Numbered from the whole stretch's first letter, positions 38,401 through 55,850 are shown. The stretch is DNA of 56,617 nt, filler included, from a bacterium (GCA_040757115.1; 3 parts of 3 records of this genome joined end to end with filler, not necessarily neighbours in it); one strand, 5' to 3'. The notes: generated by a model not told the origin, from the sequence alone. A program made the numbers and translations.

Positions 38401-38707
38401 TTTGGAGAAGCCTCCCTTCTTTTTCCAGATATTGTGCAAAGGCATCTTGGCTATCCAGGTTGACAAGGTCAATGGAACGATCTAGTGCTAAAAGAAGTTT
38501 ACCAAGTAGATAGAAAAACTTACCTCGTGGACACCCACGAATAGCAATGTCAATGTCTGAACCCTCTCTGATTTTTCCTTCTCCGAGAGAGCCAAAGAGG
38601 AAAATATCTGTGCAGCCTGACTTTTTTAGTATCTCTACAGCTCGTCGGATGTCTTCCTGAAAATCTGCTGGAAGTTTAATTTTTTCATTCTTCATTTTCG
38701 TTTCCAT
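38393..38707 (-). CDS. minimal nucleotidyltransferase antitoxin (MntA-like)
   Basis: LFGS, SDIDIAI, IDLV; start trimmed to METKM because the longer ORF reads through the attC. Confidence 0.85.
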   Translation of the reverse strand: METKMKNEKIKLPADFQEDIRRAVEILKKSGCTDIFLFGSLGEGKIREGSDIDIAIRGCPRGKFFYLLGKLLLALDRSIDLVNLDSQDAFAQYLEKEGRLLQIG

Positions 38708-38732
38708 CCTTTCGTATATTCTCTTGCATTTC

Positions 38733-39006
38733 AGCTGACGGGATGCGGATGAGCGAAAGGCTTCAGCCCCGACCCACTTCGTGGGTGCCCCGCCGCTGAT
38801 AGCCGAAGTGACGCAGAGCCACTTCCCTTTTTCAAAAAATCCCCTTTGAGTTACATAAAGCTTCCGCCTTTCGCTCATCCGTATCCCGATAACCAAAATG
38901 GAGCGAAGCGACATTTTGGTTATCGGTCTCAGCATAAAAGAAGTTTTTGCGAAGCGAAAATTTAAGTGAGTGCCGTAAGGCACAAACCTTTTATGCTGTG
39001 TTAGGC
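38733..39006 (-). other. composite attC-like site (core GTC instead of GTT)
   Basis: Host hairpin CAGCATAAAAG..CTTTTATGCTG-t-GTTAGGC matches 46845-46933; mini-element inserted at its left end. Confidence 0.8.
38740..38924. mobile_element. gene-less mini-cassette, copy 1 (185 bp)
   Basis: GGGATGCGGATGAGCGAA..TTCGCTCATCCGTATCCC followed by GATAACCAAAATG..CATTTTGGTTATC. Confidence 0.8.
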
Positions 39007-39023
39007 GATGCGATGGCTGATTA

Positions 39024-39608
39024 TTACAATATTTCTCCATAATCCACCTCAATTCCATTGTCAATCTTTTTATAGATGATGATTTTGATGTCTATGTGCT
39101 CTGGTAATGCAGCTTTCACCTCATAGGTATGGGGCTTTATAGATACGGAGATGTCTCCGATGTAACCATCTATTCCTTTTGATTCTTCATCTGGCTCGGA
39201 TAAACGGTAATTCGTTTTCTTTATCTCAGCACCCTTCTTAAGTATTGCTTCCTGAAATCTGAGCCCAGCAAAAGTTTTCACGATCACTAAATCTATTACC
39301 CATTGTTCAACCATCTTTTGGTCAATTTTATTCAGAGAATTTTTAAGTTCTTTCAATTTCTGTAATATCTTCTCTATGGCATTTTTGATTGCATCTGGCT
39401 TTTTCTCCAAGTACCACTTTTCCCACTCAGATAGCGTTTTTCCTTCAAACTCCTGAATAATCTCACTCATTTGACCAACAACTCTTGGGCGTGTTCCTTG
39501 CGCATATTGATTTGCCAAATTGATGAGTGGTGCTACATACTTAGGAAACTCTGGCGTCTCTATGTCCAGATATTTTCTGATTTCTTCGATAGTGATTTTT
39601 ACTTTCAT
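39024..39608 (-). CDS. MjaI-family restriction endonuclease
   Basis: LANQYAQGTRPRVVGQMSE, EWEKWY, EESKGIDGYIG..VSIKP (PD-(D/E)XK-like); coupled to the methyltransferase. Confidence 0.8.
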   Translation of the reverse strand: MKVKITIEEIRKYLDIETPEFPKYVAPLINLANQYAQGTRPRVVGQMSEIIQEFEGKTLSEWEKWYLEKKPDAIKNAIEKILQKLKELKNSLNKIDQKMVEQWVIDLVIVKTFAGLRFQEAILKKGAEIKKTNYRLSEPDEESKGIDGYIGDISVSIKPHTYEVKAALPEHIDIKIIIYKKIDNGIEVDYGEIL

Positions 39609-40909
39609 GTTACACCCTTTTGATCTCCATTTTGAAAGTTTAAAAATTTCGCCTTGTATTTATAGTCAAAAGTAGTATCCACATCAACCAAACTATTCTT
39701 AATCAAATGAGCATTTAAAAATGTCTTATTCCACAAATAAAGATAACAAAGCAAGTTGTTTTTCTCATCGTATTTCACATTATCAAACTTTAGAAACACC
39801 TTTTGCCCACAAGTCTTGTCTCTTAAGAATTGAACAGCCTCTCCATTTTTTTCTGGTCTCTCCTTTACACCTAATAGTTTGATTTTTAGTCCGTTATTTA
39901 AAATCAATATCTCTGGGGAGATTATTTCTTTTACCGTGTAATGTGTTTCGCTTTCGTAATGTGAATTATCTATTTTCGAACCAAACCTTAATTCTCTCGG
40001 GTCAACCTTCTTATCAAATCTTATAGGGTCGCTGAATTTATATGGCAATTTTTTAATTTCCTCTTTAAAGTCTATTTTTGGGTCTTCTTGCTTAACTATC
40101 TCAAAAGTTGCATTTTGAAAAATAGTACTCTGCTTTAACCCAAGTTTATCTTTTATAATCGGTAGGAACTCCTCATTTATTTCGTAGCCGATAGAGTTTC
40201 TATTCAGATTTTTTGCTGCTAAAGATGTCGTGCCACTACCAAGAAAAGGGTCAAGAACAGTATCATCAACAAAACTGAACATTTTGATGAGTCGTCTTGG
40301 TAACTCCTCAGGGAACATCGCCAGATGTTTATCTTGTTTTTCACCTGGAAAATTCCAGTGTCCTGTGAAATATTGATTCCATTCTTCTTGCGTTAGTTTT
40401 GATTGCTCTTTAATTTCATAGCTTACCTTTGGTGGATTTCCATATTTTTTGAAAATTAAAATAAATTCGTAATCCAATTTAAGAATCCCATTTCTGGGAT
40501 ATGGGAAAGACCCCATTACTGTTGCTCCACCAGTGGTATGGCAAGTAGTGACTTTTTGCCAGATAATTGCTCCCATATAATCGAACCCCCCGCTTTCACA
40601 GAACTTGATGATTTCAGTCCTTATCGGAATAATTTTATATCTTCCATAATAAACAGAACGAGCGAATTGGTCACCAATGTTAATACACAAACGGCAACCT
40701 TTATGCAAAATCCTGTGGCACTCATTCCACACCAAATTAAGGTTGTTTATATATTCTTCATAACTATCATTGAAACCTATCTGTTTTCCATTTCCATAAT
40801 CCTTCAGTTGCCAATAGGGTGGAGATGTAATGATAAGATGTACTGATTCATCCTGGATCTCTTTCATCCATCTTGAATCACCTATGATTATTTTGTGTTT
40901 TGTTTTCAT
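39605..40909 (-). CDS. beta-class DNA methyltransferase (SPPY, probably m4C) fused to a thermonuclease-like domain
   Basis: ITSPPY, H.AMFPEEL, DPFLGSGTT; C-terminal IKLLGV..LLCYLYL..FLNAHLIK SNase-like segment. Confidence 0.88.
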   Translation of the reverse strand: MKTKHKIIIGDSRWMKEIQDESVHLIITSPPYWQLKDYGNGKQIGFNDSYEEYINNLNLVWNECHRILHKGCRLCINIGDQFARSVYYGRYKIIPIRTEIIKFCESGGFDYMGAIIWQKVTTCHTTGGATVMGSFPYPRNGILKLDYEFILIFKKYGNPPKVSYEIKEQSKLTQEEWNQYFTGHWNFPGEKQDKHLAMFPEELPRRLIKMFSFVDDTVLDPFLGSGTTSLAAKNLNRNSIGYEINEEFLPIIKDKLGLKQSTIFQNATFEIVKQEDPKIDFKEEIKKLPYKFSDPIRFDKKVDPRELRFGSKIDNSHYESETHYTVKEIISPEILILNNGLKIKLLGVKERPEKNGEAVQFLRDKTCGQKVFLKFDNVKYDEKNNLLCYLYLWNKTFLNAHLIKNSLVDVDTTFDYKYKAKFLNFQNGDQKGVT

Positions 40910-40953
40910 CTTGCTACCTATAATGGATTTGATTTACTTAAAGCCACCGTTTC

Positions 40954-41033
40954 GCCCAACGGGATGCGGATAAAAGAAGTTGCCAAAAACATTTTGGGGA
41001 AATCTTTGATTTCCCTTTTATCCGCTGTTGTGC
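40954..41033 (-). other. attC-like site
   Basis: Plus strand GCCCAAC-gggat-GCGGATAAAAG..CTTTTATCCGC-t-GTTGTGC. Confidence 0.85.
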
Positions 41034-41041
41034 GAAGTTGT

Positions 41042-41596
41042 CTATTTTTCATTTCCGACCCTCTTCAACAGCTCTTTAATTTTACTAATTTCTGTATCCT
41101 CAACTTTCCCAGAGGCGATATACCTTATTATTCCTTTTTGGTCTATTATTATCACATTGCTTTCATTATCTTTCATTTTGTAACAAGAATTCATCTTGCC
41201 ATCCCAATCTCCGTATATTGTCATCCCTTCTTTCTTTGAATTTTGCCGAAGTTTACTTTTCCATATTCCAGTAAATGGCCAGAATGCTCCTTGACAATTT
41301 ATAACAGGCAACCTAATAATGAGTTTTTTTACTAAATCCAATTGTTCAAAATAAAATTTATTTAACTCATCTTTCAATTTCCGATTCTTTTTTACAACAT
41401 CTTTTGCCTCATAGAATATGACTATTATCTTTCCTTTTATCATATCAAGAGTAAGTATTTTGTCGTCTCCTGATTCAACTTTGAAGAAAGGGGCAGCCGT
41501 CCCAATGATTAAATCTTCCGCAATAGATATCTCGGGCAAGAATAAAGTGCAAAATATAGTTGCTAAAGCGGTAATTGATAATAACTTTTTATCCAT
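41042..41596 (-). CDS. exported thioredoxin-fold (AhpC/TSA or YtfJ-like) protein
   Basis: Signal peptide; G..AP.F, TL..IKGKI.VIFYE, IIIDQKGIIRY; no CxxC. Confidence 0.7.
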   Translation of the reverse strand: MDKKLLSITALATIFCTLFLPEISIAEDLIIGTAAPFFKVESGDDKILTLDMIKGKIIVIFYEAKDVVKKNRKLKDELNKFYFEQLDLVKKLIIRLPVINCQGAFWPFTGIWKSKLRQNSKKEGMTIYGDWDGKMNSCYKMKDNESNVIIIDQKGIIRYIASGKVEDTEISKIKELLKRVGNEK

Positions 41597-42746
41597 CTTC
41601 TTTACTTTTTCCTTTCAAAAACCAATATAAATTGGCGTAGTTCCGCCATAATTTTTTAGAAATACCATAGTTACTTGATATAGATTTCAGAACTTTTCTA
41701 GAAACTTTCCCTTGTTCAACTAATTCCTTTCCTGCCTGCTCTAAGGATGCCAATATTTGCTTTAAATAAACCCTATAAGGTGGTGCATCAGTAATAAATT
41801 GTGCACCGGGTCGTAATATAGTGGCGATAAGTGGTGTATGAAAATCCCTTGCTATCCCATGAAAAGTTTCGACCACTGGTCCGAAATACTCAATTTCAGG
41901 AAACCCATTGACAGAAAAAAGAACAATATATCGTTCCTTCGTGTTCTGCAATGGGTGCCGTGTCAGATTACGATAAGGCACAAAAACAGGTTTAACAGTA
42001 ATAAACTCCCTATCAAGAAATGCCTTCAATTTGGCAGGAATTGAACTAATGTATAATGGGAAGGCATAAATAGTCACACAACTATTGTTAACCTTTTCTA
42101 TTAACTCATTTGCAGCATCTTCAATTACACATTTTCCATTTGTTTTAGTCCAGCAGGTAAAACACCCTCGGCAAGGCTCAATGTTGAACTCCTTGTTATA
42201 AATATCAATGACTTCAACTTCTGTACCTGTCTGCTCAATGCCTTTCATCAAATATTGTAGATAGAAGTAGGTAAAGCCGTTTTTTCTCCGTGGACTCCCA
42301 TTTATAATTAGAATCTTATCAGGTTTTTTCCATACTCTTTTCTTTAGGATTTCAAAATCTTGAACCTTATCTTCTATTCCTGCTATTTCTTCATCAGTAA
42401 ATTTTTTCCCAAATACCTTATTGAACATCTTGAGATAATAAAGTGAACCTTTAATACGATATTTTCTCGTCAACCATCCCCAAGTTCCACTGATTTCACC
42501 ACTGACAATATCAAGCCAAACCGAAACTGGTGAATAGATTGTAATGGTAGGATTGCTATGTTTTCCTTCACCATACCCTGCCTTTCCTCCTGATACCGAA
42601 AGATAAAAGTAATAAGTTTCCCCATCTTCTTCCAGAACAAACTGATAAACTGCCTCAAAATCAGGAAATTGCTTATTGTCGTATAAATTAACCAAATAAC
42701 GAAAAAGGTTAGATAAATTGTCTTTTGTTGATGGTATTTCAATCAT
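41589..42746 (-). CDS. SCP2 sterol-binding domain fused to flavodoxin-like iron-sulfur flavoprotein
   Basis: N-terminal YQF..P.ITI....WLDI..G SCP2 pattern; INGSPR..G.T, CRGCFTCW..C, PLY...PAKLKAFLDR; start MIEIP with GGAGG RBS. Confidence 0.8.
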   Translation of the reverse strand: MIEIPSTKDNLSNLFRYLVNLYDNKQFPDFEAVYQFVLEEDGETYYFYLSVSGGKAGYGEGKHSNPTITIYSPVSVWLDIVSGEISGTWGWLTRKYRIKGSLYYLKMFNKVFGKKFTDEEIAGIEDKVQDFEILKKRVWKKPDKILIINGSPRRKNGFTYFYLQYLMKGIEQTGTEVEVIDIYNKEFNIEPCRGCFTCWTKTNGKCVIEDAANELIEKVNNSCVTIYAFPLYISSIPAKLKAFLDREFITVKPVFVPYRNLTRHPLQNTKERYIVLFSVNGFPEIEYFGPVVETFHGIARDFHTPLIATILRPGAQFITDAPPYRVYLKQILASLEQAGKELVEQGKVSRKVLKSISSNYGISKKLWRNYANLYWFLKGKSKEDG

Positions 42747-42780
42747 GTTTTCCTCCTTGCTAACATTCTTTGACAATTTC

Positions 42781-43113
42781 GCCCAACGGGATGCGGATGA
42801 GCGAAGTGCCCCAAAGGGGCATAGGTTCGACAGGCTCACTACAAGTTTTGGCTTCAGCCCCGATCCACTTCGTGCGACCCACCTTTGGTGGGTACCCCGC
42901 CGCCGCTGATAGCCAAAGTGACGCTTCGCAACTTCCCTTTTTCAAAAAATCCCCTTTGAGTTACATAAAGCTTTCGCCTTTCGCTCATTCGCATCCCGAT
43001 AACCAAAATGGAGCGAAGCGACATTTTGGTTATCGTTTTCGCTGTTTGTGAAGCCCGAAGGGCATTTGGGCGAAGCCGCCGAGGGCGGACGAGCCACAAA
43101 CTCTGTGTTAGCC
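42781..43113 (-). other. composite attC-like site
   Basis: GCCCAAC, mini-element, host hairpin GTTTGTG..CACAAAC, GTTAGCC. Confidence 0.85.
42788..43034. mobile_element. gene-less mini-cassette, copy 2 (247 bp)
   Basis: Same two-hairpin structure; nearly identical to 45885-46131. Confidence 0.85.
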
Positions 43114-43131
43114 GACGTGCTGATTATGCGA

Positions 43132-43875
43132 CTATTCAAGTTCGAAACTTACCGTGACTTTTGCATTGACGTTAATCTGCCCAAGAGCAATGCTGCTTTC
43201 GGCTACTGAAGGTGCACCGCCAACATTTTGAATTACATTTTGAGCCATTCCACCTCTCCACCAGCGAGAACCCCACCAAGCATTATACCAGCACCACCAT
43301 CCAACTTGATCTTCCTGGATCATATGAGGCTTGCCAATCTTCTGCCCTAGTTCCTTGGCTAAATCATTAGCTTTTTGTTCAGCTGCCTTGATTGCAAGAG
43401 CACGTGCTTGATCTCTGTACTTACGGAGCTTTGTGGTGCGGAATTGAACCCCGTGAACATAATTGGCGCCGGCTTCAAGTACATCGCTTAGGAGGTCTTC
43501 GAACTTGGCGATATCCTTTAGTGTGAATACAATCGTTTTTCGAACAAAATAACCTATAAAGTTACGCTTCTCATAATCATCACTATATCTCGGCTCAATA
43601 CTGATGTGGTCGGTTTGGACATGTTTGGATTCAATTTTATACTTTTTGGCAACTGCCAGCAGTTTCTTAACACGTTTATCATTTTGACTTTTTGCTACAC
43701 CAATATCTTTGTCGCATGTCTCCACTCCAAGGGTAAGGATAACCTCATCAGGTGTAACTCTTACTTCAGCATCTCCAGTAACTGTGATCAAGCGTAGCTC
43801 TGCAAAAGCGGAAAACGAGGAAGCCAAAACAAGAACAAAGGCAAAAATACCTCTTCTCACGATTACATTCATCAA
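43132..43875 (-). CDS. SIMPL (DUF541) domain exported protein
   Basis: Signal peptide; ITVTG.AEV.V.PD, T..ISIEP.Y, A...A..KA..LA..LG, G.I.V.A.V.V.F. Confidence 0.9.
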   Translation of the reverse strand: MMNVIVRRGIFAFVLVLASSFSAFAELRLITVTGDAEVRVTPDEVILTLGVETCDKDIGVAKSQNDKRVKKLLAVAKKYKIESKHVQTDHISIEPRYSDDYEKRNFIGYFVRKTIVFTLKDIAKFEDLLSDVLEAGANYVHGVQFRTTKLRKYRDQARALAIKAAEQKANDLAKELGQKIGKPHMIQEDQVGWWCWYNAWWGSRWWRGGMAQNVIQNVGGAPSVAESSIALGQINVNAKVTVSFELE

Positions 43876-43910
43876 TCATCCCTCCTTTCCTGACAAATTA
43901 TCAGCATGTC

Positions 43911-44081
43911 GGCTAACGTTCCCAGCATAAAAGAAGTCCAGCACTTTCCATTTCCCCTTTTCCAATATTTCAATAAAACCACTTTATGATCATCTAACTG
44001 CTCTCCGCTCTTTAACCATAAAAAGTGCTGGATTTGGGTAAGTCCGCCTCTGGCGGACGAACTTTTTATGCTGTGTTATAT
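43911..44081 (-). other. attC-like site
   Basis: GGCTAAC-gttcc-CAGCATAAAA..TTTTATGCTG-t-GTTATAT with inner TCCAGCACTTT / AAAGTGCTGGA stem. Confidence 0.85.
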
Positions 44082-45133
44082 GCTGTTGGTCGCTTTCTGT
44101 CACTTTTTCTACCACCTCTCTTTTTATTTGGTGAATACTTGCCTTTGGGTTCAAAAAGTCTAAGTTGCTGTTCTACTTTCTTTGTCTCATAGATTTTGGT
44201 TTTATCTTCTTCAACATTTTCCAACCTTCTCAAGGCAATTTCTACATATTCGGGGTTAGTGTCAATTCCTATGAATTTTCTTCCTAATTTTTTTGCAGCA
44301 ATGGCGGTTGTTCCACTTCCCACAAAAGGATCTAAAACAATTGCGGAATCTGAAAAAGTGGTTAGCTTGATTATATATTCGCATATTGCTAAGGGTTTAA
44401 CAGTTTTATGGATATTAAAGTCTCCCTTTTCTTCTTTACTTGGTTTGGGCAAAAGGAAACATTTATCCAAAACTTCGGTAATTTCATGGGTGGTTACCAC
44501 ATTAGAAGGAAACATATCTTCTCCAATTTTAACATTTGTATTTAGAAGTCCTACATTATACTTTAACATATTTTCTAAGAATGTTTTTTCACATGGTTTC
44601 TGAGCCATCATAATCGGCTCAAAACATGATTTTATTTGCGGTGTTTTCCAACCAGTTAATTTATCCTTTACTTCTTTTTTAGATTTTTTATCCCAATCTA
44701 ATCTATCTATGAAATGATTAAGTGACATCGCCTTAGGCTGATTCTGTGTATAAAGCCAAATAAAACAATCTCTTATTAAAAAGCCAGCATCATCAGCTGC
44801 TGAAACCATCCGATGATAGAGCCGAGGACTTGAAAATGAAAAGAAGAACCCACCGGGTTTTAATGCCCGGTATAGCTCTTTTGATATTTTCAGATACCAA
44901 TCATAAAAATTCTTTCCCTGATCTTTATCAAATTTCATTCCAGGTGGGAGAGATTTTACCACATGACAATAATCTGTTATTGTAGAAACTGTTTTATGAT
45001 TCCAGTTATTATCCATTTTGTCTAAAAAGTATGGAGGGTCTGTTAGGACAAGGTCTATTGAATTATCCTCAATTTGAGGTAAGACTTGTAAAGCATCTCC
45101 TAATATAATTTTATTTATCAATGCTCTATTCAT
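44066..45133 (-). CDS. beta-class DNA methyltransferase (DPPY, probably m6A)
   Basis: LTDPPY, HKTVKP, DPFVGSGTT; stop lies inside the attC. Confidence 0.9.
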   Translation of the reverse strand: MNRALINKIILGDALQVLPQIEDNSIDLVLTDPPYFLDKMDNNWNHKTVSTITDYCHVVKSLPPGMKFDKDQGKNFYDWYLKISKELYRALKPGGFFFSFSSPRLYHRMVSAADDAGFLIRDCFIWLYTQNQPKAMSLNHFIDRLDWDKKSKKEVKDKLTGWKTPQIKSCFEPIMMAQKPCEKTFLENMLKYNVGLLNTNVKIGEDMFPSNVVTTHEITEVLDKCFLLPKPSKEEKGDFNIHKTVKPLAICEYIIKLTTFSDSAIVLDPFVGSGTTAIAAKKLGRKFIGIDTNPEYVEIALRRLENVEEDKTKIYETKKVEQQLRLFEPKGKYSPNKKRGGRKSDRKRPTAYNTA

Positions 45134-45847
45134 TTGGGTTCCTCCCATTACATTCTTCATATAAAATCTTGTATACTTGCCACCTGACTTCTTTATCTGA
45201 CCTTTTTATTACGTTGGAATTTGCCAGTTTTATTACCCTACCTCTTTCATCATAAACCCAATTATTTCTATCTGCCTGATTACACTTTTCACACTGTGGG
45301 ATAATGTTTCCTGCAACCAGAGGTTGATTTGGATCTTTATGTGCTATTTGTAAGCTGGTAATAGTGTTTGGCCAATGGATATGTGGCTTACTTTCTTCTG
45401 AACCACAGGTGACACATCTATATCCATACTGTTTCTTAAGATTTTCCCAATCACCAGTTTCTTCTATTTTGTGCCCTTTGAAAGCAGGATAAGGTTTTTC
45501 CAGTGTTATAAGTTTATACTCTCCAGATTCAAGAGTCACATGTCTATTACCACGAGTGCCCGATACAATGAACCAGTCTTTTTGAGCCCCAAGATGCCTT
45601 GCTTGCTCAACATCAGCCGTATCAGGATAATATTGGCGAACGAATTGTGTAAGTTCTCCTTTTGAAATCTTTTTCGCCTTAGGATAACCCTGTGCCAGAT
45701 AAACTAATACAAGAGTATCCTTTGTATAATTCCCATGTGTATCGTCAACTTAGGTAGTTTCACTTCATATTGCTTTAAATGTTTATCATGATACTCGCAT
45801 ATCATTTTGTAAATCTTCTTTATCTCCTTGTCAGATAATCGTTTCAT
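45126..45847 (-). pseudogene. frameshifted HNH-type restriction endonuclease
   Basis: MKRLSDKEIK..KLPKLT continues after a 1-bp frameshift near 45745 as DTHGNYTK..QARHLGAQK..CVTC..AHKDP..CEKCN; total 722 bp = 3n-1. Confidence 0.75.
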
Positions 45848-45877
45848 ATTTTATCTCCTTTTCAGACGACCAATTGC

Positions 45878-46207
45878 GTATAACGGGATACGGATGAGCG
45901 AAGTGCCCCAAAGGGGCATAGGTTCGACAGGCTCACTACAAGTTTTGGCTTCAGCCCCGACCCACTTCGTGCGACCCACCTTTGGTGGGTACCCCGCCGC
46001 CGCTGATAGCCGAAGTGACGCAGAGCAACTTCCCTTTTTCAAAAAATCCCCTTTGAGTTACATAAAGCTTTCGCCTTTCGCTCATCCGCATCCCGATAAC
46101 CAAAATGGAGCGAAGCGACATTTTGGTTATCGTTTTCGGTGTAAAAGAAGTTTCAGCGAAGCCGAATTTGGACGAAGCGAAGCGTAGTCTTTTACACCGT
46201 GTTATGT
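45878..46207 (-). other. composite attC-like site
   Basis: GTATAAC, mini-element, host hairpin CGGTGTAAAAGA..TCTTTTACACCG-t-GTTATGT. Confidence 0.85.
45885..46131. mobile_element. gene-less mini-cassette, copy 3 (247 bp)
   Basis: Same two-hairpin structure at the same insertion point. Confidence 0.85.
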
Positions 46208-46354
46208 GATGTGCGTACCAATCTTTTGTTTTCGTAAATAGCCGTATTTTTCTTTGAGTTCATGGAGAAATGCATCGCGGTTAGTAGAATACTTTTTGCT
46301 TAACTCTTCACGAATCTTCCGCTGAAATTTCACAGCATCAAATTTCTTTTTCAT
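46202..46354 (-). CDS. 50-aa putative antitoxin (not in ORF track)
   Basis: MKKKFDAVKFQRKIREELSKKYSTNRDAFLHELKEKYGYLRKQKIGTHIT*; GGAGG RBS; overlaps the PIN gene. Confidence 0.7.
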   Translation of the reverse strand: MKKKFDAVKFQRKIREELSKKYSTNRDAFLHELKEKYGYLRKQKIGTHIT

Positions 46355-46802
46355 GGATAACCTCCCTTGGACTCCTAATCTCGAGGATAGGATAACCTAA
46401 TTTTAAATTGACCGAATTAAAAGCATGGATACGGTTAAGATTTACAATTTGCTGGAAGTTCCAGCTAACAAGCACATCCACCCGTTCCACTGAAGCTATT
46501 GCAATATGTTGAGCGTCTACTATATGCTTTGCACTTACCACTCCCTCATCAATGTAATTTTGTGCCAAGATATCAGCTTCCTCTGTAAGGAAAACATTCT
46601 CTACATTTGCATCCGGAAGAGAGAATAAAATTTTCCTTACACTTTCTGGAGCTTTTTCAATCTCTTTATGAGTTAAATCGGAAACAACAGCAATTCGTAA
46701 ACCTTGTCGAAACTCCTTAAACAATTGAATAGACCATTGGGAAAATTCTTCATCTTCACATCCACCAATGACAGATGTATCGATATAAACCCGCTGCTTC
46801 AT
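46338..46802 (-). CDS. PIN-domain RNase toxin
   Basis: VYIDTSV, DAQHIAIA, LVSWNF. Confidence 0.9.
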   Translation of the reverse strand: MKQRVYIDTSVIGGCEDEEFSQWSIQLFKEFRQGLRIAVVSDLTHKEIEKAPESVRKILFSLPDANVENVFLTEEADILAQNYIDEGVVSAKHIVDAQHIAIASVERVDVLVSWNFQQIVNLNRIHAFNSVNLKLGYPILEIRSPREVIHEKEI

Positions 46803-46844
46803 ATTATCTTACCTTCATACTTATATTTCAAAACTACGCATTTC

Positions 46845-46933
46845 AGATAACGTTCCCAGCATAAAAGAAGTTTTTGCGAAGCAAAAATTTGGGTGAGTGC
46901 CATAAGGCACGAACCTTTTATGCTCTGTTATAC
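46845..46933 (-). other. attC-like site
   Basis: AGATAAC-gttccc-AGCATAAAAG..CTTTTATGCT-ct-GTTATAC. Confidence 0.85.
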
Positions 46934-46977
46934 AACTGTGCCGTGCTCATTCTAAGAAACTCTTAGAAAATCTCATT

Positions 46978-47934
46978 TTAATTTCCTTGCAACTCCTTAA
47001 GAATGAAATCTATCCATTTTTGATACCAATACCATGTCCCACAAACTTCGACACCAAATCCTTTGGCAGGATTTTTGCCATTATGGTCTTTCCAGAATTG
47101 GGTGTGTTGAGACGGTCCAAATTCATTATGACCTTCAGCTTGAACTTTTTTCAGAACATCTTTTCGTAAAAATTTAGGTTTTTCTCTATCTTCTTTTATC
47201 CAATATTCCTTTGATATATTCTTGGCTAATGGCGATTCAGGGTCAATAAATTCAATCACTCTATCCGCTTGCCCTTGCCTTTTAGCAACAACCTTTGAAA
47301 ATAAAAGCCGATAAGCAAATCTATCGCTCTTTATTTCATCATCAGTAAGAGAGTTGTCAAAATCCGCAATATATGAGTGAATTTCTTTTGGTATTAACCC
47401 TTCCTTATCTTTAATTATATTTGCTTGTGTATAATCAAGTTCTGCAAACTGCAAACTTAAAGCTAAATTATTATCAAGTGAGTATTTTGTACCAAATAGT
47501 TCTTTCAAATAGTAATTATAATTCAAAGCACATGCTTGGTAACGGGCCGAAAGGTAAGAATCTAATCCAGTAGCTTTTTTATGCTCAATTTGATTTCGTA
47601 ATCCTATAAGAAATTTAAGATTGTTTGAAGTATTTTTATCAAGAGGGCATTCAGATTTTGAAATACATTCCTTGATGTCCCAATGTTTAATGCTTCCATC
47701 TGGGTTTCGTAAGAATTTCTTCCGCTCCTTGGGAATAGTGTAATAACGGTAATCAATTTTTTTTGACCTATAGTATGCATGAAGAAGATATGTCCAAGCA
47801 ATAATAAAAAGTACTATGAATGATTCCGTTTTAAAGGTAGTAAGAGGGTTATTATATATTTGAACAGCAGAGAGAGCTGCTTCTCTTGATTTTAAGATTA
47901 AATCTACCTTTTCAGAAAAGAGTCGTCTATGCAT
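46978..47934 (-). CDS. DUF3644-like protein with HEPN motif
   Basis: KSREA...AV.IYN.P, F.VL..IAW.YLLHA, LRNQIEH (RX4H). Confidence 0.75.
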   Translation of the reverse strand: MHRRLFSEKVDLILKSREAALSAVQIYNNPLTTFKTESFIVLFIIAWTYLLHAYYRSKKIDYRYYTIPKERKKFLRNPDGSIKHWDIKECISKSECPLDKNTSNNLKFLIGLRNQIEHKKATGLDSYLSARYQACALNYNYYLKELFGTKYSLDNNLALSLQFAELDYTQANIIKDKEGLIPKEIHSYIADFDNSLTDDEIKSDRFAYRLLFSKVVAKRQGQADRVIEFIDPESPLAKNISKEYWIKEDREKPKFLRKDVLKKVQAEGHNEFGPSQHTQFWKDHNGKNPAKGFGVEVCGTWYWYQKWIDFILKELQGN

Positions 47935-47974
47935 ATTTTCAATTCCTTCTATTTACTTCTAGGCACGGCATGTT

Positions 47975-48056
47975 GTATAACGTTCCTGATGTAAAAGAAG
48001 TTTTGCGAAGCAAAATTTGGACGAAGTGAAACGAAGTCTTTTACATCGTGTTATAC
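47975..48056 (-). other. attC-like site
   Basis: GTATAAC-gttcct-GATGTAAAAGA..TCTTTTACATC-gt-GTTATAC. Confidence 0.85.
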
Positions 48057-48097
48057 GCTGTGCCGGGCTCTTTTATAATCATACTTAAAGTAAACTC

Positions 48098-48298
48098 TTA
48101 TGCCTTTCTCAATAAAACCCCTTTCTCACTTGGTCTAACTTGAGCTACTCCATCTAAATGTTTGATATTTTCTAACCCTTTCTTTGTAGTCTCAACTCCT
48201 ACAATATCTGTAAGACTGGAGACAAATAAAATATTGCCGTATTCTTTAATCCTCTCAACTGCCTGAGTATCCTTAATTTTGGCTAAGATTCTAATCAT
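48098..48298 (-). CDS. stand-alone subtilase prodomain/I9-like protein
   Basis: 66 aa; aligns by eye with residues 1-65 of the adjacent S8 protease; ATGA overlap. Confidence 0.75.
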   Translation of the reverse strand: MIRILAKIKDTQAVERIKEYGNILFVSSLTDIVGVETTKKGLENIKHLDGVAQVRPSEKGVLLRKA

Positions 48299-49278
48299 TC
48301 TTCTAACACCTCCAGTAACTTATGGATATTAAGCAACCCATATCCCTGTTCATTTCTTCTATATCCCAAGTCCTTGCAACTCTGTTTTATAGAATTTATT
48401 ACCCATTCTTTATCTTGATACTTACTAAAAAGAGAAGCTAATGTGCCTGTTATTATTGGTGTGGAGATAGAAGTTCCCATAACCTTAAATTTGCCAATAG
48501 AAAGAGAACCCGGGGCTAGCAAATCCGGCTTTTCTTGAAATACAAACCCTCTACTGCTGTAATTAGCTATCTTTTCATCCTCACTCGCTCCAATGGTTAT
48601 CGCCTTATTGGCATTACCTGGACAGGATATAGTTCCTTCTTCTGGTCCCCAATTCCCAGCCGCAGATACTACATATAGACCATTATCAACCAATACATCT
48701 ACATACTGACAAAGCCAGCAGTCTCCCTGACATCTTCTGGAAAAACCCAAAGATAGGTTGACTATATGAGCTTTATTTTGATAAGACCATTCTAAGGCTT
48801 GAAATAATGCTATCTCGTCAACCTCTCCAAAACGGTTTACTACCTTTCCAATCAACATTGAGGAGTCAGGAGCAATTGACTGAATTAGCTTAGAGATAAT
48901 AGTGCCATGAGTAATCTCATCTTGCAACCCTTCTTCTGTAAAGTCTTTATCCAGGATAACCGAATATTTTAATCCCGAATCTTGAAGGAATACTCCACTA
49001 TCCAAGATAGAGATATAGATACCTGCACCAAATAGACCCATCTCATGAAGATGTTGAATCCCTATCTTAAACAATGTTTGATTGAATAAGATGGTCCCTT
49101 TCTCACTCTCTCTGAACTCTTCGATAAAACCAATCTGTTTTAATGCTTCTGGGTATTTTGTTTCAAGACCAATTATATCAACAAGCTTCGTTTGGAAGAG
49201 TAAGGATACTCCTATCTTTTTTAATTCTTCTATATGCTCAGACTTCATCTTATCCTTTAACTTTGCAAGTAGTCGCAT
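48295..49278 (-). CDS. S8 (subtilisin-like) serine protease, no signal peptide
   Basis: ILDSG, HGT, AAGN, GTSISTP catalytic motifs; NLSLG, YSSRG, KPDLLAPG, QGYG. Confidence 0.92.
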   Translation of the reverse strand: MRLLAKLKDKMKSEHIEELKKIGVSLLFQTKLVDIIGLETKYPEALKQIGFIEEFRESEKGTILFNQTLFKIGIQHLHEMGLFGAGIYISILDSGVFLQDSGLKYSVILDKDFTEEGLQDEITHGTIISKLIQSIAPDSSMLIGKVVNRFGEVDEIALFQALEWSYQNKAHIVNLSLGFSRRCQGDCWLCQYVDVLVDNGLYVVSAAGNWGPEEGTISCPGNANKAITIGASEDEKIANYSSRGFVFQEKPDLLAPGSLSIGKFKVMGTSISTPIITGTLASLFSKYQDKEWVINSIKQSCKDLGYRRNEQGYGLLNIHKLLEVLEE

Positions 49279-49295
49279 AATCCTCTACCTTTTTA

Positions 49296-52200
49296 TCATA
49301 CAAAATGATTTTTAAATAAAGCTTGAATTTCTTTAGCAATAGCGACTCGGTCAGGCATGTAATTTTCTTTTTCAAGTTCTGTAAGATGCCAATCAATCTC
49401 TACGGTTAACCACTCATGCTTGCCACTTATGTCAGTTAGTTTAACCTCCATGTCATTCAGAGGATCAATGTAATTCTTGTAATCCTTTCCCTCCAAAGCT
49501 AATGCAATACAAACAAGCGAAGCAGCAATCACTTTTTCTTTATCTAAGAGAGTACCTCGAGTCAATCTTTTATAAGTAGCGATAACCTCATTGTACCTTC
49601 TAAGACAAATTTTCACTTCCATTTCTCCTAAAAATGCCATTTTATTTAAAGGGTTAAGTCCAGTAGCCATCTGATAATCAGGGATAGAATTTACCAAATC
49701 TCCTTTTTGAGAATAGCAACCAGCCCTTTGCATATAATTATTATCATTACCTGGTTCAATCTTAATCGCCTTAGTGAAGTCCTGAATTGCCATATTTAAA
49801 TAGTTTTCAGCGTATTCAGGGGAACAGACAGCCAAAATTCTATAACATATTCCTCGTCGATTATAGGCACCAGCAAAGCTTGGGTTTATTTCTAAGACTT
49901 CAGTATATTTTTCTGCTGCCTTTTCCAAATTATCTTTTTTAAACAAATCATTAGCTTCTTTTAATGCTTGCTTGTACTTAATAACATCTTCTTCACTTAG
50001 GTAGTGTTTTTTAAAGAGATTATGAATTATTAAGGCATTATCAATCCGATCCTGTGAAATTCCTAACTCTTTTAGCTTGGGCTCAGAAATATATGGTTCA
50101 ATATCATTTGGATCATAAATATCCTTAAAGAGCTTAATTGTAATATCTTTTAATGAAGCCATGTAATCTTCGTATGGTATACCCTCTAAGGAGAGAGCTA
50201 AACATATAAAATGTGCTGCAATTACCCTATATTGATGGGACAGTCTATTTATGCGAATGTCTTTATATGTTTTTCTGGCTTCAGAATACCTACATAGCCA
50301 AATTTCAATCTCCATTTTAGACATTATTGCAGCTATATTTTGGGGATTCAACCTAATTGCCTCACCATAGTCTGAAATTGCCTTCTCTAAATCTTTCTTA
50401 TATACATAGCAGTTACCCCTTCCATGAAATAATGAGCTGGTAGGTTTAATCTGTATAGCTCTGGTATAGTTTTCAATTCCATTGTCAAAGAATTTGTTAT
50501 TATCTTTTGACTTACCTAACTTCAAATATATATCTCCTACCATTTCATATGTTTTGGCAAGATTTGAACCTATTTCTATAGCTTTATCACACTCTTCCAA
50601 TGCAGTTTCAATCTGGTCATTTTTAAAGAGTTGGTTTGCTTCTGCCAAGTAGATTTTACATAGCTGGTTACTGTAAACCCCTTCAGATATAAAATCTCCA
50701 CTTCCTTTTGCCACAGCTATCGCCTGGTGATAATAGTCTATCGCCTTGCTAAATTGGTTTGAGAAAAAGGAGAGATTTCCAAGATTAGAAACGAAACTAC
50801 CTTCTTGTTGTTTATCTCCAATTTTTTTGGCAATTTCTAAGCCATCACGATAATACTCCTCAGCCTGCTTAAATTGACTTAATAAAGCATAAATATTCCC
50901 AAGATTGCAGAGAGCCTTCATTTGATTTGTTAAGTCTTTATTCTCTTTGGCATTGCTTAGTTCATCTGATAAAGAGCCTATTTTCTTATTTTTCTTATCC
51001 CACTGTTTTATTTTTTCTTTAAAGAAATCTTGAACCGAATCTTCATATTGTTCATCTCCAATCTCTTTAGCAATATTTTCTGCCTGAATAAAACATTCCA
51101 TTGCCTTGTCAGATTGACCTGACTTGATATATACATCACCAAGCATAGAAATATAATTACCTTCATTCTGTAGATCTTCATCTTCTTGAGCGATTTTTAG
51201 TGCCTTAGAAAGATAACCAATAGCCTTGTCAAATTGCTCTAATTTAGAATAGCTTTCTCCAATCTTAGACAAAATATTGCTTTCATGCTGTCTGTTCCTC
51301 ATCTTTTTGGCAATATCAAGGCCATACTCAAAGTATTCAATAGCCTGATAAAACTCTAAGAGATCAAAGTACACTATGCCTATATTCCAGAGATCTGAAA
51401 TCTCATTTTCTAGACTTCTCATTTCTTTACTAATCTTCACCGCCTCTTTATAATATTCAATAGCTTCCAGGAATTCTGCAGAAGCCCAATATATGTTGCC
51501 AAGGGAAGATAATTGATAATGTATTCCTTTTCTAAAGAGAATGCTCTTTGAGATAGATAAGGCATCTTTAAGAAAATCTATTGCCTTTGATGAATATCCT
51601 GATTTATAGTACTGGTTACCCAAAACACCAAGCCACCAGCTTTCATGTCTTCTGTCTTTGGTCTCAATAGCAATTGCATGGGCTAATTCATAACATTCAA
51701 TTGCTTTTTTATGCTCGTCTCTTTCCTCATAAATATTTCCTAAATCCCCAAGCCATATACCTTCATATCTTCTATCTTTACTTTCAGGTTCGCGACAAAT
51801 ATCTATAGCCTGTTTATAGTACTCCTCAGCCTTTTCCAAATCTCCTTTTGAATGGAGTGCATTACCCAAGCATCCAAAATTTCTTCCTTCAATCTTCCGA
51901 TTTTTAATTTCCTTGAAAAATGCTTTGGCCAGATTGTGGTATTCTATTGATTCATCGATTTCACCCAGAAAATGGCATACATCTCCTAAGTTTACAAGTT
52001 GTGTACATTCACTATTCTTATCCTGGCAAACTTGGGCAATGGATAGAGCTTCTTTATAATATCTCTTTGCCTCTTGTATGTCTCCCAAATCGCGGAATAC
52101 AAGCCCTAAATTACCAAGAAGAATACTTAACTTATCCTCTGGAATCTCTTTTCTTTTTTCTTCAAAACCTTTATAAATGTTCATCAACTCTCTAAAGTAA

Positions 52201-54428
52201 CACCAAGAAAACAGTTTATCATGTAGTCCTTCTTTCATAAATAATTCCACTGTTTCTTTAGTTCTCTCAGCAGATATGAGGTGCTCAATGGCATCAAGAA
52301 GAGGATATATATCCTCAATAGACTTCTTATGTTCCGATAAGAGGGATGCCTGGTTGAGGTAGAAATCTCCTGCCTTGCTATGAAGATAGATTTTTTCTTT
52401 ATCTTTTAATTGACTTAACACATATTCCCTTACTATTGCGTGAACATCATAAGTTTCTTCTTGAGGTCTTGACACAAGACATCGCTGGATTAGTTCATTC
52501 AAAGCATGAAGGCTCTCTCTTTCAGGCATATCTGTCACAAAAGAAAAAGCCTTTAGGTCACATGGTTTTAAAAATATACAAACAGAATGGAGAGCCTTCT
52601 TCAAATTTGAATCGTGAGAAATCCTTTTGTAAGCCCGAGAGACGACATTAGTAGTAATCTTCTCTAATTTGCCCAACCAAAGGATGTCATCATTTATAAT
52701 TGTTTGGATACCTGTAGAAGATAGGGAAGGAGCTATCCACTCTAATGCACCAGGATGTCCTTGCATCTTTTCTCTTACCAGTGTTCTTATATCTTCAACC
52801 GACTTCTCCAAAATTGGTCTATCTTCTTCAGAAATTCCCCTCTTGAGTATTTCTATTCCCGCAGATTCATCAACACCTTTAAGAAATATATGATGGAATT
52901 CCTTCTCTTCTGAATCTTTAGGTATCACCCACGCAGTAAGTATCAGCCTTGCACTCTCTAAATTCCTTGAGCAAGTTAAAAACTTAGCAAAACCCTCATC
53001 CTTTGGTTTAAGGGTTTTCCTATCAACAAGAACCTCAAATTGGTCAATAATAACAAGACATGAGTTCTTCTCAATTGTGTTTATGACTAATTGAACCTGC
53101 TCATCTACGGTGCTACCACCAAAATCTATATCCTCATCGGTTAGATATTTAATCAGTCGTCTTCCAAACTCAGAAAATGAAGGTGGTTTATCATAGTTAA
53201 GGCGTCTCCAATAATACCTTTTGAACTGCAACCATTTATCTTTTATTATTTTTTCAAAAAGTGCTGAAAGTAATTTTGACTTGCCGATTCCTTTAATGCC
53301 TACAATAGCAAAAGAATACCCTTTGAGTAAATTAAGGCATTTTTCTATCTCTTCTTCGCGTCCAAATAAATCTTTAGCTGGAACCTTATATTCTTCTTCT
53401 GAAATAGGTATAATTTTTCTTTTTCTTTCTTCCCTTTCCTTCCTTTCTTGCATCTCTTCCAAAACTTGAATAATCTCTGGTGGAAAAGGCTCCCTAAGGA
53501 ATCGGTTCTCTTTAACATCGGAAGTAGTACTGATGTTAATCTGTATTTTATTATTTACCAATGTCTCTAATATCTGGGCATTCTTATTAGAAAACCCATC
53601 AATGAATATAGATTTAACCAATGGACCATATTTTTCTTTGTCCTCTGGGCGCATTTGAATAACCACTTCAATCGCATAAGGGGTGTAGGAGCTGATCTCG
53701 GTCTGATTGTGTAACCACCAATAAATTTCATCATGTGGGTCAAGTCTAAAATTCCTTACTGTTTCGAATGATACCCGATTACTTGCTATATCCAATTCAT
53801 CAGAGAAGCGTAACATCGCCCCTATTAGTCGTTTGCGTTCATTCGAATTGAACTTGAACTTCTCGTCACAATCGTCAATTGGTAGTTTAGAATGGTACTT
53901 GCAGACATCCATCAAGTCCTCTACAAGATTTGAAGGAATAGTTTTAGCTGCAGGACCAAGGACAGAGTCTCCAGTCTCGTAGGCATACTCAATCCAGGCG
54001 GCACTGAAGTAGTGGTGGTTTTTGCGAATAGCTTTCTGCTCGTCTATGCTGTAGCTACTGGATGTCGAAGCAGTAAAGGTAACATCAAACTCTGCGCCCA
54101 TTTTTTCAGCCCTCTCCTTAATCTCAGGGAATCTGATAACATCACACTGCATTCCTATATCGTGCAAGTAGATACCTGCCAAAACCAGATACATTTCTTG
54201 TGCAGAAATGGGTTTACCTTGATTAACTTCTAACAATTTGTTTTTAAAATTTTCTACTACTCGCTCGCAATGTGTTTCATCATGGTAAGTACAATCCCGA
54301 ATGATGCGTGGTGCATCAGAAGCCCATATATCTTCCATTGCTTCTCGAATTTGTGCAAGATTGGAGCGAAGACGATTGTTGGCAATATCCTTCAAAAGTT
54401 GTTCCTCAATAGCGGAAAATTTAGCCAT
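49296..54428 (-). CDS. HD-domain - STAND NTPase - TPR protein (NLR/Avs-like), 1710 aa
   Basis: YHDETHCERV, YLHDIGM, HH, YHS, RFSDELD (HD); FGREEE, GIKGIGKS, LVIIDQFE, LILT, GHPGAL, VHAIVR (STAND); ~950 aa of TPRs. Confidence 0.9.
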   Translation of the reverse strand: MAKFSAIEEQLLKDIANNRLRSNLAQIREAMEDIWASDAPRIIRDCTYHDETHCERVVENFKNKLLEVNQGKPISAQEMYLVLAGIYLHDIGMQCDVIRFPEIKERAEKMGAEFDVTFTASTSSSYSIDEQKAIRKNHHYFSAAWIEYAYETGDSVLGPAAKTIPSNLVEDLMDVCKYHSKLPIDDCDEKFKFNSNERKRLIGAMLRFSDELDIASNRVSFETVRNFRLDPHDEIYWWLHNQTEISSYTPYAIEVVIQMRPEDKEKYGPLVKSIFIDGFSNKNAQILETLVNNKIQINISTTSDVKENRFLREPFPPEIIQVLEEMQERKEREERKRKIIPISEEEYKVPAKDLFGREEEIEKCLNLLKGYSFAIVGIKGIGKSKLLSALFEKIIKDKWLQFKRYYWRRLNYDKPPSFSEFGRRLIKYLTDEDIDFGGSTVDEQVQLVINTIEKNSCLVIIDQFEVLVDRKTLKPKDEGFAKFLTCSRNLESARLILTAWVIPKDSEEKEFHHIFLKGVDESAGIEILKRGISEEDRPILEKSVEDIRTLVREKMQGHPGALEWIAPSLSSTGIQTIINDDILWLGKLEKITTNVVSRAYKRISHDSNLKKALHSVCIFLKPCDLKAFSFVTDMPERESLHALNELIQRCLVSRPQEETYDVHAIVREYVLSQLKDKEKIYLHSKAGDFYLNQASLLSEHKKSIEDIYPLLDAIEHLISAERTKETVELFMKEGLHDKLFSWCYFRELMNIYKGFEEKRKEIPEDKLSILLGNLGLVFRDLGDIQEAKRYYKEALSIAQVCQDKNSECTQLVNLGDVCHFLGEIDESIEYHNLAKAFFKEIKNRKIEGRNFGCLGNALHSKGDLEKAEEYYKQAIDICREPESKDRRYEGIWLGDLGNIYEERDEHKKAIECYELAHAIAIETKDRRHESWWLGVLGNQYYKSGYSSKAIDFLKDALSISKSILFRKGIHYQLSSLGNIYWASAEFLEAIEYYKEAVKISKEMRSLENEISDLWNIGIVYFDLLEFYQAIEYFEYGLDIAKKMRNRQHESNILSKIGESYSKLEQFDKAIGYLSKALKIAQEDEDLQNEGNYISMLGDVYIKSGQSDKAMECFIQAENIAKEIGDEQYEDSVQDFFKEKIKQWDKKNKKIGSLSDELSNAKENKDLTNQMKALCNLGNIYALLSQFKQAEEYYRDGLEIAKKIGDKQQEGSFVSNLGNLSFFSNQFSKAIDYYHQAIAVAKGSGDFISEGVYSNQLCKIYLAEANQLFKNDQIETALEECDKAIEIGSNLAKTYEMVGDIYLKLGKSKDNNKFFDNGIENYTRAIQIKPTSSLFHGRGNCYVYKKDLEKAISDYGEAIRLNPQNIAAIMSKMEIEIWLCRYSEARKTYKDIRINRLSHQYRVIAAHFICLALSLEGIPYEDYMASLKDITIKLFKDIYDPNDIEPYISEPKLKELGISQDRIDNALIIHNLFKKHYLSEEDVIKYKQALKEANDLFKKDNLEKAAEKYTEVLEINPSFAGAYNRRGICYRILAVCSPEYAENYLNMAIQDFTKAIKIEPGNDNNYMQRAGCYSQKGDLVNSIPDYQMATGLNPLNKMAFLGEMEVKICLRRYNEVIATYKRLTRGTLLDKEKVIAASLVCIALALEGKDYKNYIDPLNDMEVKLTDISGKHEWLTVEIDWHLTELEKENYMPDRVAIAKEIQALFKNHFV

Positions 54429-54595
54429 GATTCTGTACCTCTTAACAATCTGTTTATACTTATGACAATATCATCTTAATTAGGAGTCTTACATAAATAA
54501 AAAAAACCAGGTTATTCATTCTCTTTTTTTCCAATTTATCTTTAAAAATAAGCTGATGACACCTAACATTTCTTAAATTAAGGGCACGGCATTGC

Positions 54596-54940
54596 ATATA
54601 ACGGGATGCGGATGAGCGAAGTGCCCCTTTAGGGGCATAGGTTCGACAGGCTCACTACAAATTTTGGCTTCAGCCCCGACCCGCAAGCGCGACCCACTTC
54701 GTGGGTTCCCCGCCGCCGCTGATAGCCGAAGTGACGCTTCGCAACTTCCCTTTTTCAAAGATTCCCCTTGAGTTACATAAAGCTTCCGCCTTTCGCTCAT
54801 CTGCATCCCGATAACCAAAATGCGAACCCCAAAGGGGTTCGAGCGAAGCGTCATTTTGGTTATCGTTCGCGGTGTTTGTGAAGTGCGAGCGTTAGCGAGC
54901 ATTTGGGTGAGCGCAGCGAGCCACAAACACCGTGTTATCT
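54596..54940 (-). other. composite attC-like site
   Basis: ATATAAC, mini-element, host hairpin CGGTGTTTGTG..CACAAACACCG-t-GTTATCT. Confidence 0.85.
54603..54864. mobile_element. gene-less mini-cassette, copy 4 (262 bp)
   Basis: Same structure; extra GAACCCCAAAGGGGTTC hairpin in the small loop. Confidence 0.85.
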
Positions 54941-54957
54941 GAAATCCAACAATAGTA

Positions 54958-55743: not shown

Positions 55744-55766
55744 TTCTAACCCTTAAGTTGGATTTC

Positions 55767-55824: not shown

Positions 55825-55850
55825 GCCGTTGTGGGCAATTTTCTCATTTT

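Follow-up and report, generated by a model that had tools for sequence, protein, structure and literature searches.

What kind of element can lack a gene and still sit, four times over, at the very point where an integron recombines its cassettes? The question is raised by a cassette array in the bacterial assembly GCA_040757115.1, which was analysed here as a whole stretch of 56,617 nucleotides that we call the window. Integron cassettes are normally seen as a gene together with an attC site. The array also holds a gene-less unit, whose four copies begin at 38740, 42788, 45885, and 54603 and are 185, 247, 247, and 262 bp long. An earlier interpretation made from the DNA letters alone, referred to below as the sequence-only reading, had singled out these copies as insertions, free of target-site duplication, of a selfish element that hijacks the array recombinase; the multiple gene-less copies and the lack of a duplication were read directly in the present analysis. 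On balance, and with modest confidence, we favor the view that the unit is a cargo-free integron cassette, that is, an attC site of the local type that has turned into a cassette and is moved by the integron integrase through an altered core, ATC/GAT.

All four copies lie on the plus strand, which reads AAC, bulge, stem, loop, stem, and GTT across the attC sites of the array and therefore corresponds to their bottom strand. Each copy starts with GGGATGCGGATGAGCGAA, in which copy 3 has one A for G, and ends with a small perfect hairpin composed of GATAACCAAAATG, a loop, and CATTTTGGTTATC; the complement of the left arm stands directly before this hairpin. Copy 1 (38740..38924) consists of a left arm (38740-38757), a large loop (38758-38869), a right arm (38870-38887), and the two small-hairpin arms (38888-38900 and 38912-38924). 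The left and right arms and the two small-hairpin arms are, respectively, at 42788-42805, 42980-42997, 42998-43010, and 43022-43034 in copy 2 (42788..43034), at 45885-45902, 46077-46094, 46095-46107, and 46119-46131 in copy 3 (45885..46131), and at 54603-54620, 54792-54809, 54810-54822, and 54852-54864 in copy 4 (54603..54864), whose small-hairpin loop contains an extra mini-hairpin. The left flanks of copies 1 to 4 end in GAC, AAC, AAC, and AAC. To their right stand four distinct attC bodies, each belonging to the upstream cassette: GGTCT-CAGCATAAAAG at 38925..39002, the site of a MjaI restriction-modification cassette, in which the end of copy 1 takes the place of the 5′ R-box arm; GTTTT-CGCTGTTTGTG at 43035..43109, the site of a SIMPL cassette; GTTTT-CGGTGTAAAAG at 46132..46203; and GTTCG-CGGTGTTTGTG at 54865..54936, the site of a methyltransferase cassette. 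Only one C is common to the flank (AAC) and the unit end (ATC).

When the unit is permuted circularly, its last 13 nt and first 18 nt make up one arm, and the right arm plus GATAACCAAAATG the other, giving a continuous 31-bp stem. Counted over 10 full-length copies from the window and its relatives, 305 of the 310 pairs are Watson-Crick, three are G-T, and two are A-C; an 11th copy, at locus L002, lacks the GATAAC arm and was left out. The core in this stem is ATC/GAT where cassettes carry AAC/GTT, and within the array ATC cores occur only at the unit. The proposed self-complementary stem of about 31 bp with an ATC/GAT core is thus borne out, and the dumbbell shape derived from it describes the full-length copies but not several variants elsewhere that have no complementary arm. 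The 18-nt left-arm motif is matched 10 times with up to three mismatches (0.02 expected), and the 13-nt small-hairpin arm 12 times with up to two mismatches (3.27 expected), eight of the 12 being the exact arms of the four copies. Both strands fold as single-stranded DNA far below shuffled controls (z from -8.0 to -14.5; 30 mononucleotide shuffles each). In the alignment the copies differ mainly by whole mini-hairpin modules in their loops, in agreement with the claim that the loops gain and lose small hairpins. Plus-strand open reading frames (ORFs) across copies 2 and 3 were rejected as genes because they are not conserved and the copies differ by lengths, for example 62 bp, that are not multiples of three.

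Two further features concern the way in which the unit is folded and built. The motif GCGAAGC, which is described as a very stable DNA mini-hairpin (PMC13037366), has 13 matches in the window against 1.76 expected; 11 of the 13 are on the plus strand, and 12 of the 13 lie within an attC site or a copy of the unit, the motif being almost confined to attC loops, on their bottom strand, and to the small loop of the unit. Such enrichment suggests selection for the bottom strand to fold as DNA. Separately, the large loop of copy 2 (42908-42935) and the equivalent parts of other copies contain a degenerate version of the small terminal hairpin (GATAGCCGAAGTG, a loop, and CACTTCC), which hints that the unit grew by internal duplication or by nesting of modules.

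The relationship of the unit to its surroundings becomes apparent when it is placed in the frame of a cassette. Hairpins of attC type bounded by AAC and GTT are found at 40958, 43915, 46849, 47979, and 55771, in addition to the one beside each copy, and on the plus strand the local sites are laid out as AAC, a 5-nt bulge, a stem, a variable loop, a stem, one base, and GTT. R-box pairing in the array reaches about 14 bp, as in the 6.6-kb cassette that starts after GTTATACGCTGTGCC and ends in GGCACGGCATTGCATATAAC. On the bottom strand every cassette of the array reads C, attC body, GTT-box, cargo, and the last bases of the next R-box, while the unit reads C, a GGGAT spacer, stem, large variable loop, complementary stem, ATCCC, GATAACCAAAATG, a loop of 11-29 nt, and CATTTTGGTTAT, with its right boundary again before a C. 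Seen this way, the unit is a cassette with 11-29 nt of cargo, namely the loop of the small hairpin, and the stem of that hairpin is both halves of the R-box, in extended form, lying side by side.

The ends of the unit are also homologous to local attC sequences. The uninterrupted site at 40958..41029 (plus strand) has the GGGAT spacer and the GCGGAT stem start of the left arm, sharing GGGAT-GCGGAT...GAAGT with it, and the four stem bases in which they differ are compensated on the other arm (AAAA/TTTT versus GAGC/GCTC). In the short site at 55771..55820 (plus strand) the first 22 nt past AAC are those of the left arm and the right half is of the ordinary type; it still folds as a normal short attC with AAC and GTT paired, and it is either kin to, or the source type of, the arm of the unit or what remains of a copy deleted imprecisely. 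In its final 13 nt (CATTTTGGTTATC) the unit matches normal cassette ends at 9 of 13 positions, whether compared with GCATTTCAGATAAC or with CATTTCAGATAAC, and a repeat search aligned occupied and uninterrupted sites straight through these 13 nt. For instance, the uninterrupted site at 46849..46929 (plus strand) is 87% identical over 92 nt to the site occupied by copy 1, and the alignment extends into the last 13 nt of the unit. Compared with a normal cassette, the unit has its cargo shrunk to a loop and its variable loop long and modular; ATCCC stands opposite the spacer in place of a single T, which leaves the spacer paired; and in the R-box two A-T pairs are reversed, including the middle pair of the core (AAC/GTT to ATC/GAT).

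In position the unit behaves as a cassette should. It is placed among cassettes of the same orientation separated by attC sites, and it has an attC of its own with R and L boxes, the R-box forming in the circular permutation. Its left end follows AAC in 18 of 19 cases and GAC in the remaining one, and its right end is at the equivalent position, yet with ATC as the core in every copy; the boundaries thus appear to coincide with the integrase crossover position, as had been claimed. The four different attC sites reported as host hairpins are there as well, but such insertion is the ordinary seating of any cassette in an array. Two other ways of drawing the cassette were tried and rejected: an inverted cassette formed by top-strand recombination should have AAC at each end, contrary to what is observed, and a boundary at the internal GATAAC, with the large hairpin alone as the cassette, would leave a unit without any GTT partner. 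One locus in the nearest genome (G001), where the small hairpin adjoins an MNT-HepT cassette, is compatible with either the terminal or the internal-GATAAC boundary.

Outside the window, the unit was matched in four genomes (G001, G003, G012, and G020) among 40 relatives, which are four of the 24 genomes of the phylum and come from three families; G001 carries several copies on three contigs. The exact 22-nt right end occurs in five stretches of species-representative genomes, namely metagenome-assembled genomes (MAGs) labelled Candidatus Edwardsbacteria, Nitrospirota, Patescibacteria, and 'bacterium', and in three stretches of metagenome contigs; it was not found in viral contigs, and BLAST searches of plasmids and phages gave none. 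The contigs labelled with other phyla are short, and in the Nitrospirota-labelled MAG the sole array linked to an integrase is of another attC type, so that these labels may come from mis-binning. Altogether there are about 27 copies or variants, with 27 right ends, 26 of which have a flank (L numbers denote loci in relatives and contigs). The right end adjoins a clear attC body, defined by at least 8 of 10 stem pairs plus GTT, in 20 of the 26 (19 found by script and one, with a longer spacer, by eye) and an attC remnant in three (L014, L023, and L030). Every copy has one orientation relative to attC and stands just upstream of the start of a cassette. Some copies are truncated by other small repeats, and one, 701 bp long, carries a nested insert with TTA at its flanks. 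Coding cassettes in G001 and G012 also have the right part of the unit as their leader, and the MNT-HepT cassette among them has a normal GTT in its own attC. A non-coding insert of ~460 bp with TTA on either side is seated within a mini-hairpin loop of the unit (in L002 at about 917-1392, and at the start of L028 on the reverse strand); it represents a third small repeat, after the unit and the GGAGAT-rich family described at the end.

Several comparisons speak for movement of the unit. Near-identical copies have unrelated neighbors on both sides, copies 2 and 3 being 96% alike, and the 185-bp form is present in the window and in L032 with different neighbors. Individual attC types exist in both an occupied and an uninterrupted form, with 91-92% identity, in the pairs copy 1/L011, copy 4/L002, and L028/window 47979; for the last pair, the unit occupies in L028 (91.9% identity over 111 nt), and in one more contig of run X1, a site of the type that is uninterrupted at 47979..48052 (plus strand). 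Contigs of this run contain additional copies next to sites whose attC types the window has in uninterrupted form. Summed sequencing depth over the right part of the unit is ~13-16 times the flanking depth in run X1, a figure that is not a copy number. Joints in run X1 that seem to skip the unit or to go back to its start were considered as signs of excision or circles and rejected, as they are explained by other copies and paralogous sites.

As for the mover, we infer that the integron integrase is the best supported and most economical candidate, from the boundaries at the crossover position and from a unit made of the sites of this enzyme. The integrase would excise and re-insert the unit at the usual position, between bases 2 and 3 of the core on the bottom strand, and in the free circle the two arms would join as a single perfect stem of 31 bp. 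PMC8946536 describes exchange confined to the bottom strand, and strict single orientation in spite of a symmetric stem fits such a reaction; whether a free cassette is single-stranded is stated there to be unknown. With respect to the core, assays with IntI1 found the second base of the GTT triplet to be tolerant, and changing its T to A together with the complementary base raised the frequency, GAT being reported as a preferred secondary site (PMC2811028), which agrees with the tolerance of GAT that the sequence-only reading had assumed. The same core mutation in both partner sites lowered recombination (PMC2811028).

Insertion of the unit beside an AAC/GTT site would leave both junction sites as hybrids whose cores no longer pair, and the ATC of the unit would be captured by the GAT of its small hairpin. 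Single-stranded folds point this way. In the three uninterrupted sites folded, 40958 among them, the core AAC pairs with the GTT of the site itself (3/3), while in all four occupied sites ATC is paired with the unit's own GAT and the GTT of the neighbor is left free; at the opposite junction, AAC has just its C paired (4/4). In full-context folds AAC reaches the GTT of the neighbor across the whole unit in one of the four copies (copy 4). Because of these predicted pairings, an inserted copy would be expected to cripple the attC of the upstream cassette and to be hard to excise itself. The attC of the neighboring cassette might be weakened or abolished, making the insertion hard to reverse and tying two neighbors together, and the unit could have increased in number within arrays and passed to related ones while encoding no visible benefit. 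The earlier suggestion that the unit may lock cassettes is in line with the folding prediction, in which R-box pairing is lost in four of four occupied sites and in none of the three uninterrupted ones. The notion of a selfish element that hijacks the recombinase, on the other hand, needs correction: homology to the local attC sites and the layout of a nearly cargo-less cassette mark the unit as part of the integron system and not as a foreign parasite. Selfishness had already been proposed for paralogous non-coding cassettes of Vibrio (PMC1382264). A more elaborate version, which we put forward tentatively and hold to be rather doubtful, is that of a selfish attC-only cassette that inserts efficiently through GAT/ATC, hides its own core in a private hairpin, mismatches both junctions, and so might resist excision, disable the neighboring attC, and weld cassettes together, acting as a regulator or parasite of cassette mobility through a single-stranded dumbbell circle.

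A number of observations weigh against a cargo-free cassette moved by the integrase. The site of the unit has neither an unpaired spacer nor bulged bases, and both of its strands fold equally well, the asymmetry being in the loops only. Unpaired features of attC are reported to influence how efficiently recombination proceeds and which strand is chosen, and a perfectly paired hairpin should favor the reverse reaction (PMC5027507), so that a fully paired site would be expected to be a poorer substrate. No integrase gene is present within the window. An integron-integrase model gave partial matches, covering half the model, of 214.9 and 208.1 bits in G001 and 191.8 bits in G012, and no match in the four carrier genomes passed its cut-off; the contigs with these fragments showed no sites of the unit's attC type, the full-length integrase gene of G042 stands beside another attC type, and no integrase tied to the attC type of the unit was found. 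Empty alleles, which the sequence-only reading had proposed to look for, did not turn up. In a search of G001 and G003 with copies 2 and 3 and 500 bp of their flanks, there was no allele with the same two neighbors minus the unit, and the one flank homologue (G001 C181, 85%) is outside a cassette context. Likewise, no circle junction was seen in run X1, where only contigs, which break at repeats, were available. As to whether every copy sits at an attC core, three of the 26 right flanks (L029, one in L015, and L043) have no recognizable attC, in addition to the three that have remnants. Variants of 45, 52, 102, 141, and 159 bp, found in G012, G020, and in part in G001, have kept both termini but lost GATAAC or the whole right arm, and are left unexplained by a pure hairpin-site model. 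Finally, with a single covarying stem pair, the stems may be conserved just because the copies are young.

The unit might still be moved by the integrase and yet be kept for its benefit to the host, as a regulatory cassette that provides an internal promoter, an RNA-stabilizing or insulating hairpin, or a small RNA for the cassette downstream. Its constant place and orientation just upstream of a cassette start would suit such a role, as would its part as the leader of coding cassettes in G001 and G012, and most of the gene-less Vibrio cassettes tested act as promoters in the sense direction (PMC11014356). A 40-nt block in the large loop is well conserved in all four window copies, but it is replaced by other sequence in four of the 10 full-length copies. 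A scan for sigma-70-type promoters and for terminators returned just one weak promoter site (9/12) that overlaps a copy, on the minus strand at 43052-43023, and nothing common to the copies. The idea of a structured RNA, which covariation was to support, is not favored by the consensus fold, in which little more than the pair of terminal stems and some tiny hairpins is retained and one of 35 pairs covaries, and no Rfam family matched at the gathering score or at E up to 1. We consider a regulatory cassette unlikely on these grounds; since promoters of gene-less cassettes are not predictable in silico (PMC11014356), the role nevertheless keeps some probability in spite of the scans.

Alternatively, the unit could be a non-autonomous element mobilized by another hairpin-acting enzyme that hits the attC core, such as an HUH transposase of the IS200/IS605 type, a DEDD transposase with a guide RNA of the IS110/IS1111 type, or another tyrosine recombinase. 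Absence of target duplication, a fixed AAC word on one strand, constant orientation, and hairpin-rich ends would all be explained, and so would the retention of both termini in variants without complementary arms; IS1111-family members that target attC do exist (PMC11187229), and genes of the DEDD (IS110/IS1111) type are present in three of the four carriers. However, a longer coding form with these ends did not turn up in the four carriers, in the 24 phylum genomes, or in collections of genomes, metagenomes, viruses, plasmids, and phages, and the autonomous relative by which the sequence-only reading was to be refuted did not appear in these searches. Ten transposase loci that were fetched (four DEDD and six of the 11 Y1 matches) share a single 12-nt chance match with the ends. 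Y1 genes occur in two of the carriers and were not found in G012 and G020, although the fragmentation of the carrier MAGs limits the Y1 search. The subterminal repeats of IS1111 elements (11-13 bp, 7 and 3 bp from the ends) are absent from the ends of the unit, which instead are homologous to parts of local attC sites, as expected of a cassette. Mobilization by another enzyme therefore appears quite improbable to us. Least credible is a unit with no mobility of its own, a decayed or symmetrized attC spread by segment duplication, hitch-hiking, or gene conversion between similar attC sites, the last of which Boucher et al. invoked for paralogous non-coding cassettes (PMC1382264): the junction sites do look crippled in the folds, many variants are broken, copy 3 and its left neighbor are common to L030 as one block (92% over 413 nt), and the hybrid site at 55771 shows that the arms recombine with ordinary sites, but most copies have different neighbors on both sides, the shared flanks of about 14 nt are too short for ordinary homologous recombination, and the boundaries are base-exact in 18 of 19 left ends.

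Among known systems, the cargo-free cassette proposed here is closest to the paralogous non-coding cassettes of Vibrio arrays. These cassettes are often paralogous, two V. vulnificus strains having 45 and 34 members of one family, and were regarded by Boucher et al. as either selfish or useful to the integron (PMC1382264). Like the unit, they lack genes, occur in many copies per array, have kin in related species, and respect cassette boundaries (PMC1382264, PMC11014356). Unlike those families, which are compared here from their descriptions only, the unit has a loop cargo of 11-29 nt, an ATC/GAT core, a paired spacer, and a symmetric dumbbell, and it resides in an uncultured groundwater lineage rather than in Vibrio. 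The engineered attC(aadA7) sites in which the second base of GTT was changed to A have the same base-pair change at the same place with the complement changed as well (PMC2811028); they are, however, laboratory mutants assayed with IntI1 and attI1, whereas the unit is a natural multi-copy family whose partners are other attC sites.

Mobile elements, including those that target attC sites, also differ from the unit. IS1111-attC elements such as ISKpn4 and ISPst6 target one end of a folded attC via a circular intermediate (PMC11187229), but these elements encode a DEDD transposase and also have a guide RNA region and subterminal inverted repeats, while the unit has no conserved reading frame and no repeats at the corresponding offsets. 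Group IIC-attC introns also insert into attC in one orientation (PMC3001079). They are ribozymes that encode a reverse transcriptase, in contrast to a unit of just 185-262 bp, and no group II intron was matched in the window with Rfam at the same two thresholds. A miniature inverted-repeat transposable element (MITE) would have mutually inverted termini; those of the unit are not, each pairing instead with an internal segment, and there is no duplication. Palindrome-associated elements of the IS200/IS605 group and repetitive extragenic palindromic (REP) sequences and bacterial interspersed mosaic elements (BIMEs) are, like the unit, short, hairpin-rich, and non-coding and make no target duplication, and they depend on Y1 transposases and on target words of their own. 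The ends of the unit are in contrast derived from attC, and no Y1 partner was recognized among the six of 11 matches that were fetched.

Non-coding, paralogous, and possibly selfish cassettes are thus already known. What appears to be new, within the open literature that was searched, is a symmetric attC-only cassette with an altered core: searches on MITEs at attC, on selfish or paralogous non-coding cassettes, and on Edwardsbacteria integrons returned no description of such a cargo-free unit in the main texts, to which they extended, supplements not being covered. The unit family indicates that a lone recombination site is able to survive and increase in number as a cassette, carrying a natural change in the one triplet that all attC and attI sites otherwise conserve and doing without the unpaired features considered to guide the integrase. 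Should this enzyme indeed move the unit, the family is a natural experiment on what the enzyme really needs; if it does not, some other enzyme targets the attC core. The predicted loss of a working attC in neighboring cassettes would also offer a candidate route to the stabilization of arrays and, possibly, a natural brake on cassette mobility.

The window itself is made of two contigs joined by a spacer of the form N/TTAATTAATTAA/N at 37722-37820. Its rRNA and housekeeping part (1-37721) and its cassette array (37821..56617) are placed together by this joining, which does not show them to be contiguous. Every gene of the array is on the minus strand. The cargo comprises an MNT-HepT pair, the MjaI restriction enzyme with a methylase, AhpC-like and flavodoxin-like proteins, a SIMPL protein, a methylase, a DUF3644 protein, a subtilase with a 1710-aa STAND/TPR protein, a methyltransferase, and an Asp-protease-like protein with a DUF5678 protein, a gene set that is typical cassette cargo, including its small toxin-antitoxin-like genes. 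Besides the sites discussed above, an uninterrupted long attC lies at 43915..44077 on the plus strand (AAC-GTTCC-CAGCATAAAAG ... CTTTTTATGCTG-T-GTT). The 6.6-kb cassette with matching R-box ends (47979-54602) holds the subtilase and the 1710-aa protein, the latter with HD-CE, STAND NTPase, and TPR domains, and appears to be a defence-type gene pair packed as an integron cassette.

A second non-coding repeat family, with GGAGAT-rich ends and short AT-rich repeats, is located in the window at 33856-34083 and 37266-37720, where it brackets FecR-like and radical-SAM genes, and elsewhere in L011 (1470-1743) and L020 (from about 605). In G001 it splits a HepT gene, and in G003 it cuts short a copy of the unit; it looks like an ordinary small mobile repeat. 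In the housekeeping part, the match to 23S rRNA (9709-13122) has 3414 bases against the 2925 positions of the model, with ~490 extra bases inside, and the 5S gene (6752-6868) is ~2.8 kb from the 23S gene, ORFs (7165-9346) lying between them. A 4085-aa ORF at 19412-31669 contains internal repeats of ~940 bp, for which the hairpin scan gave identical matches at 25168, 26110, and 27046.

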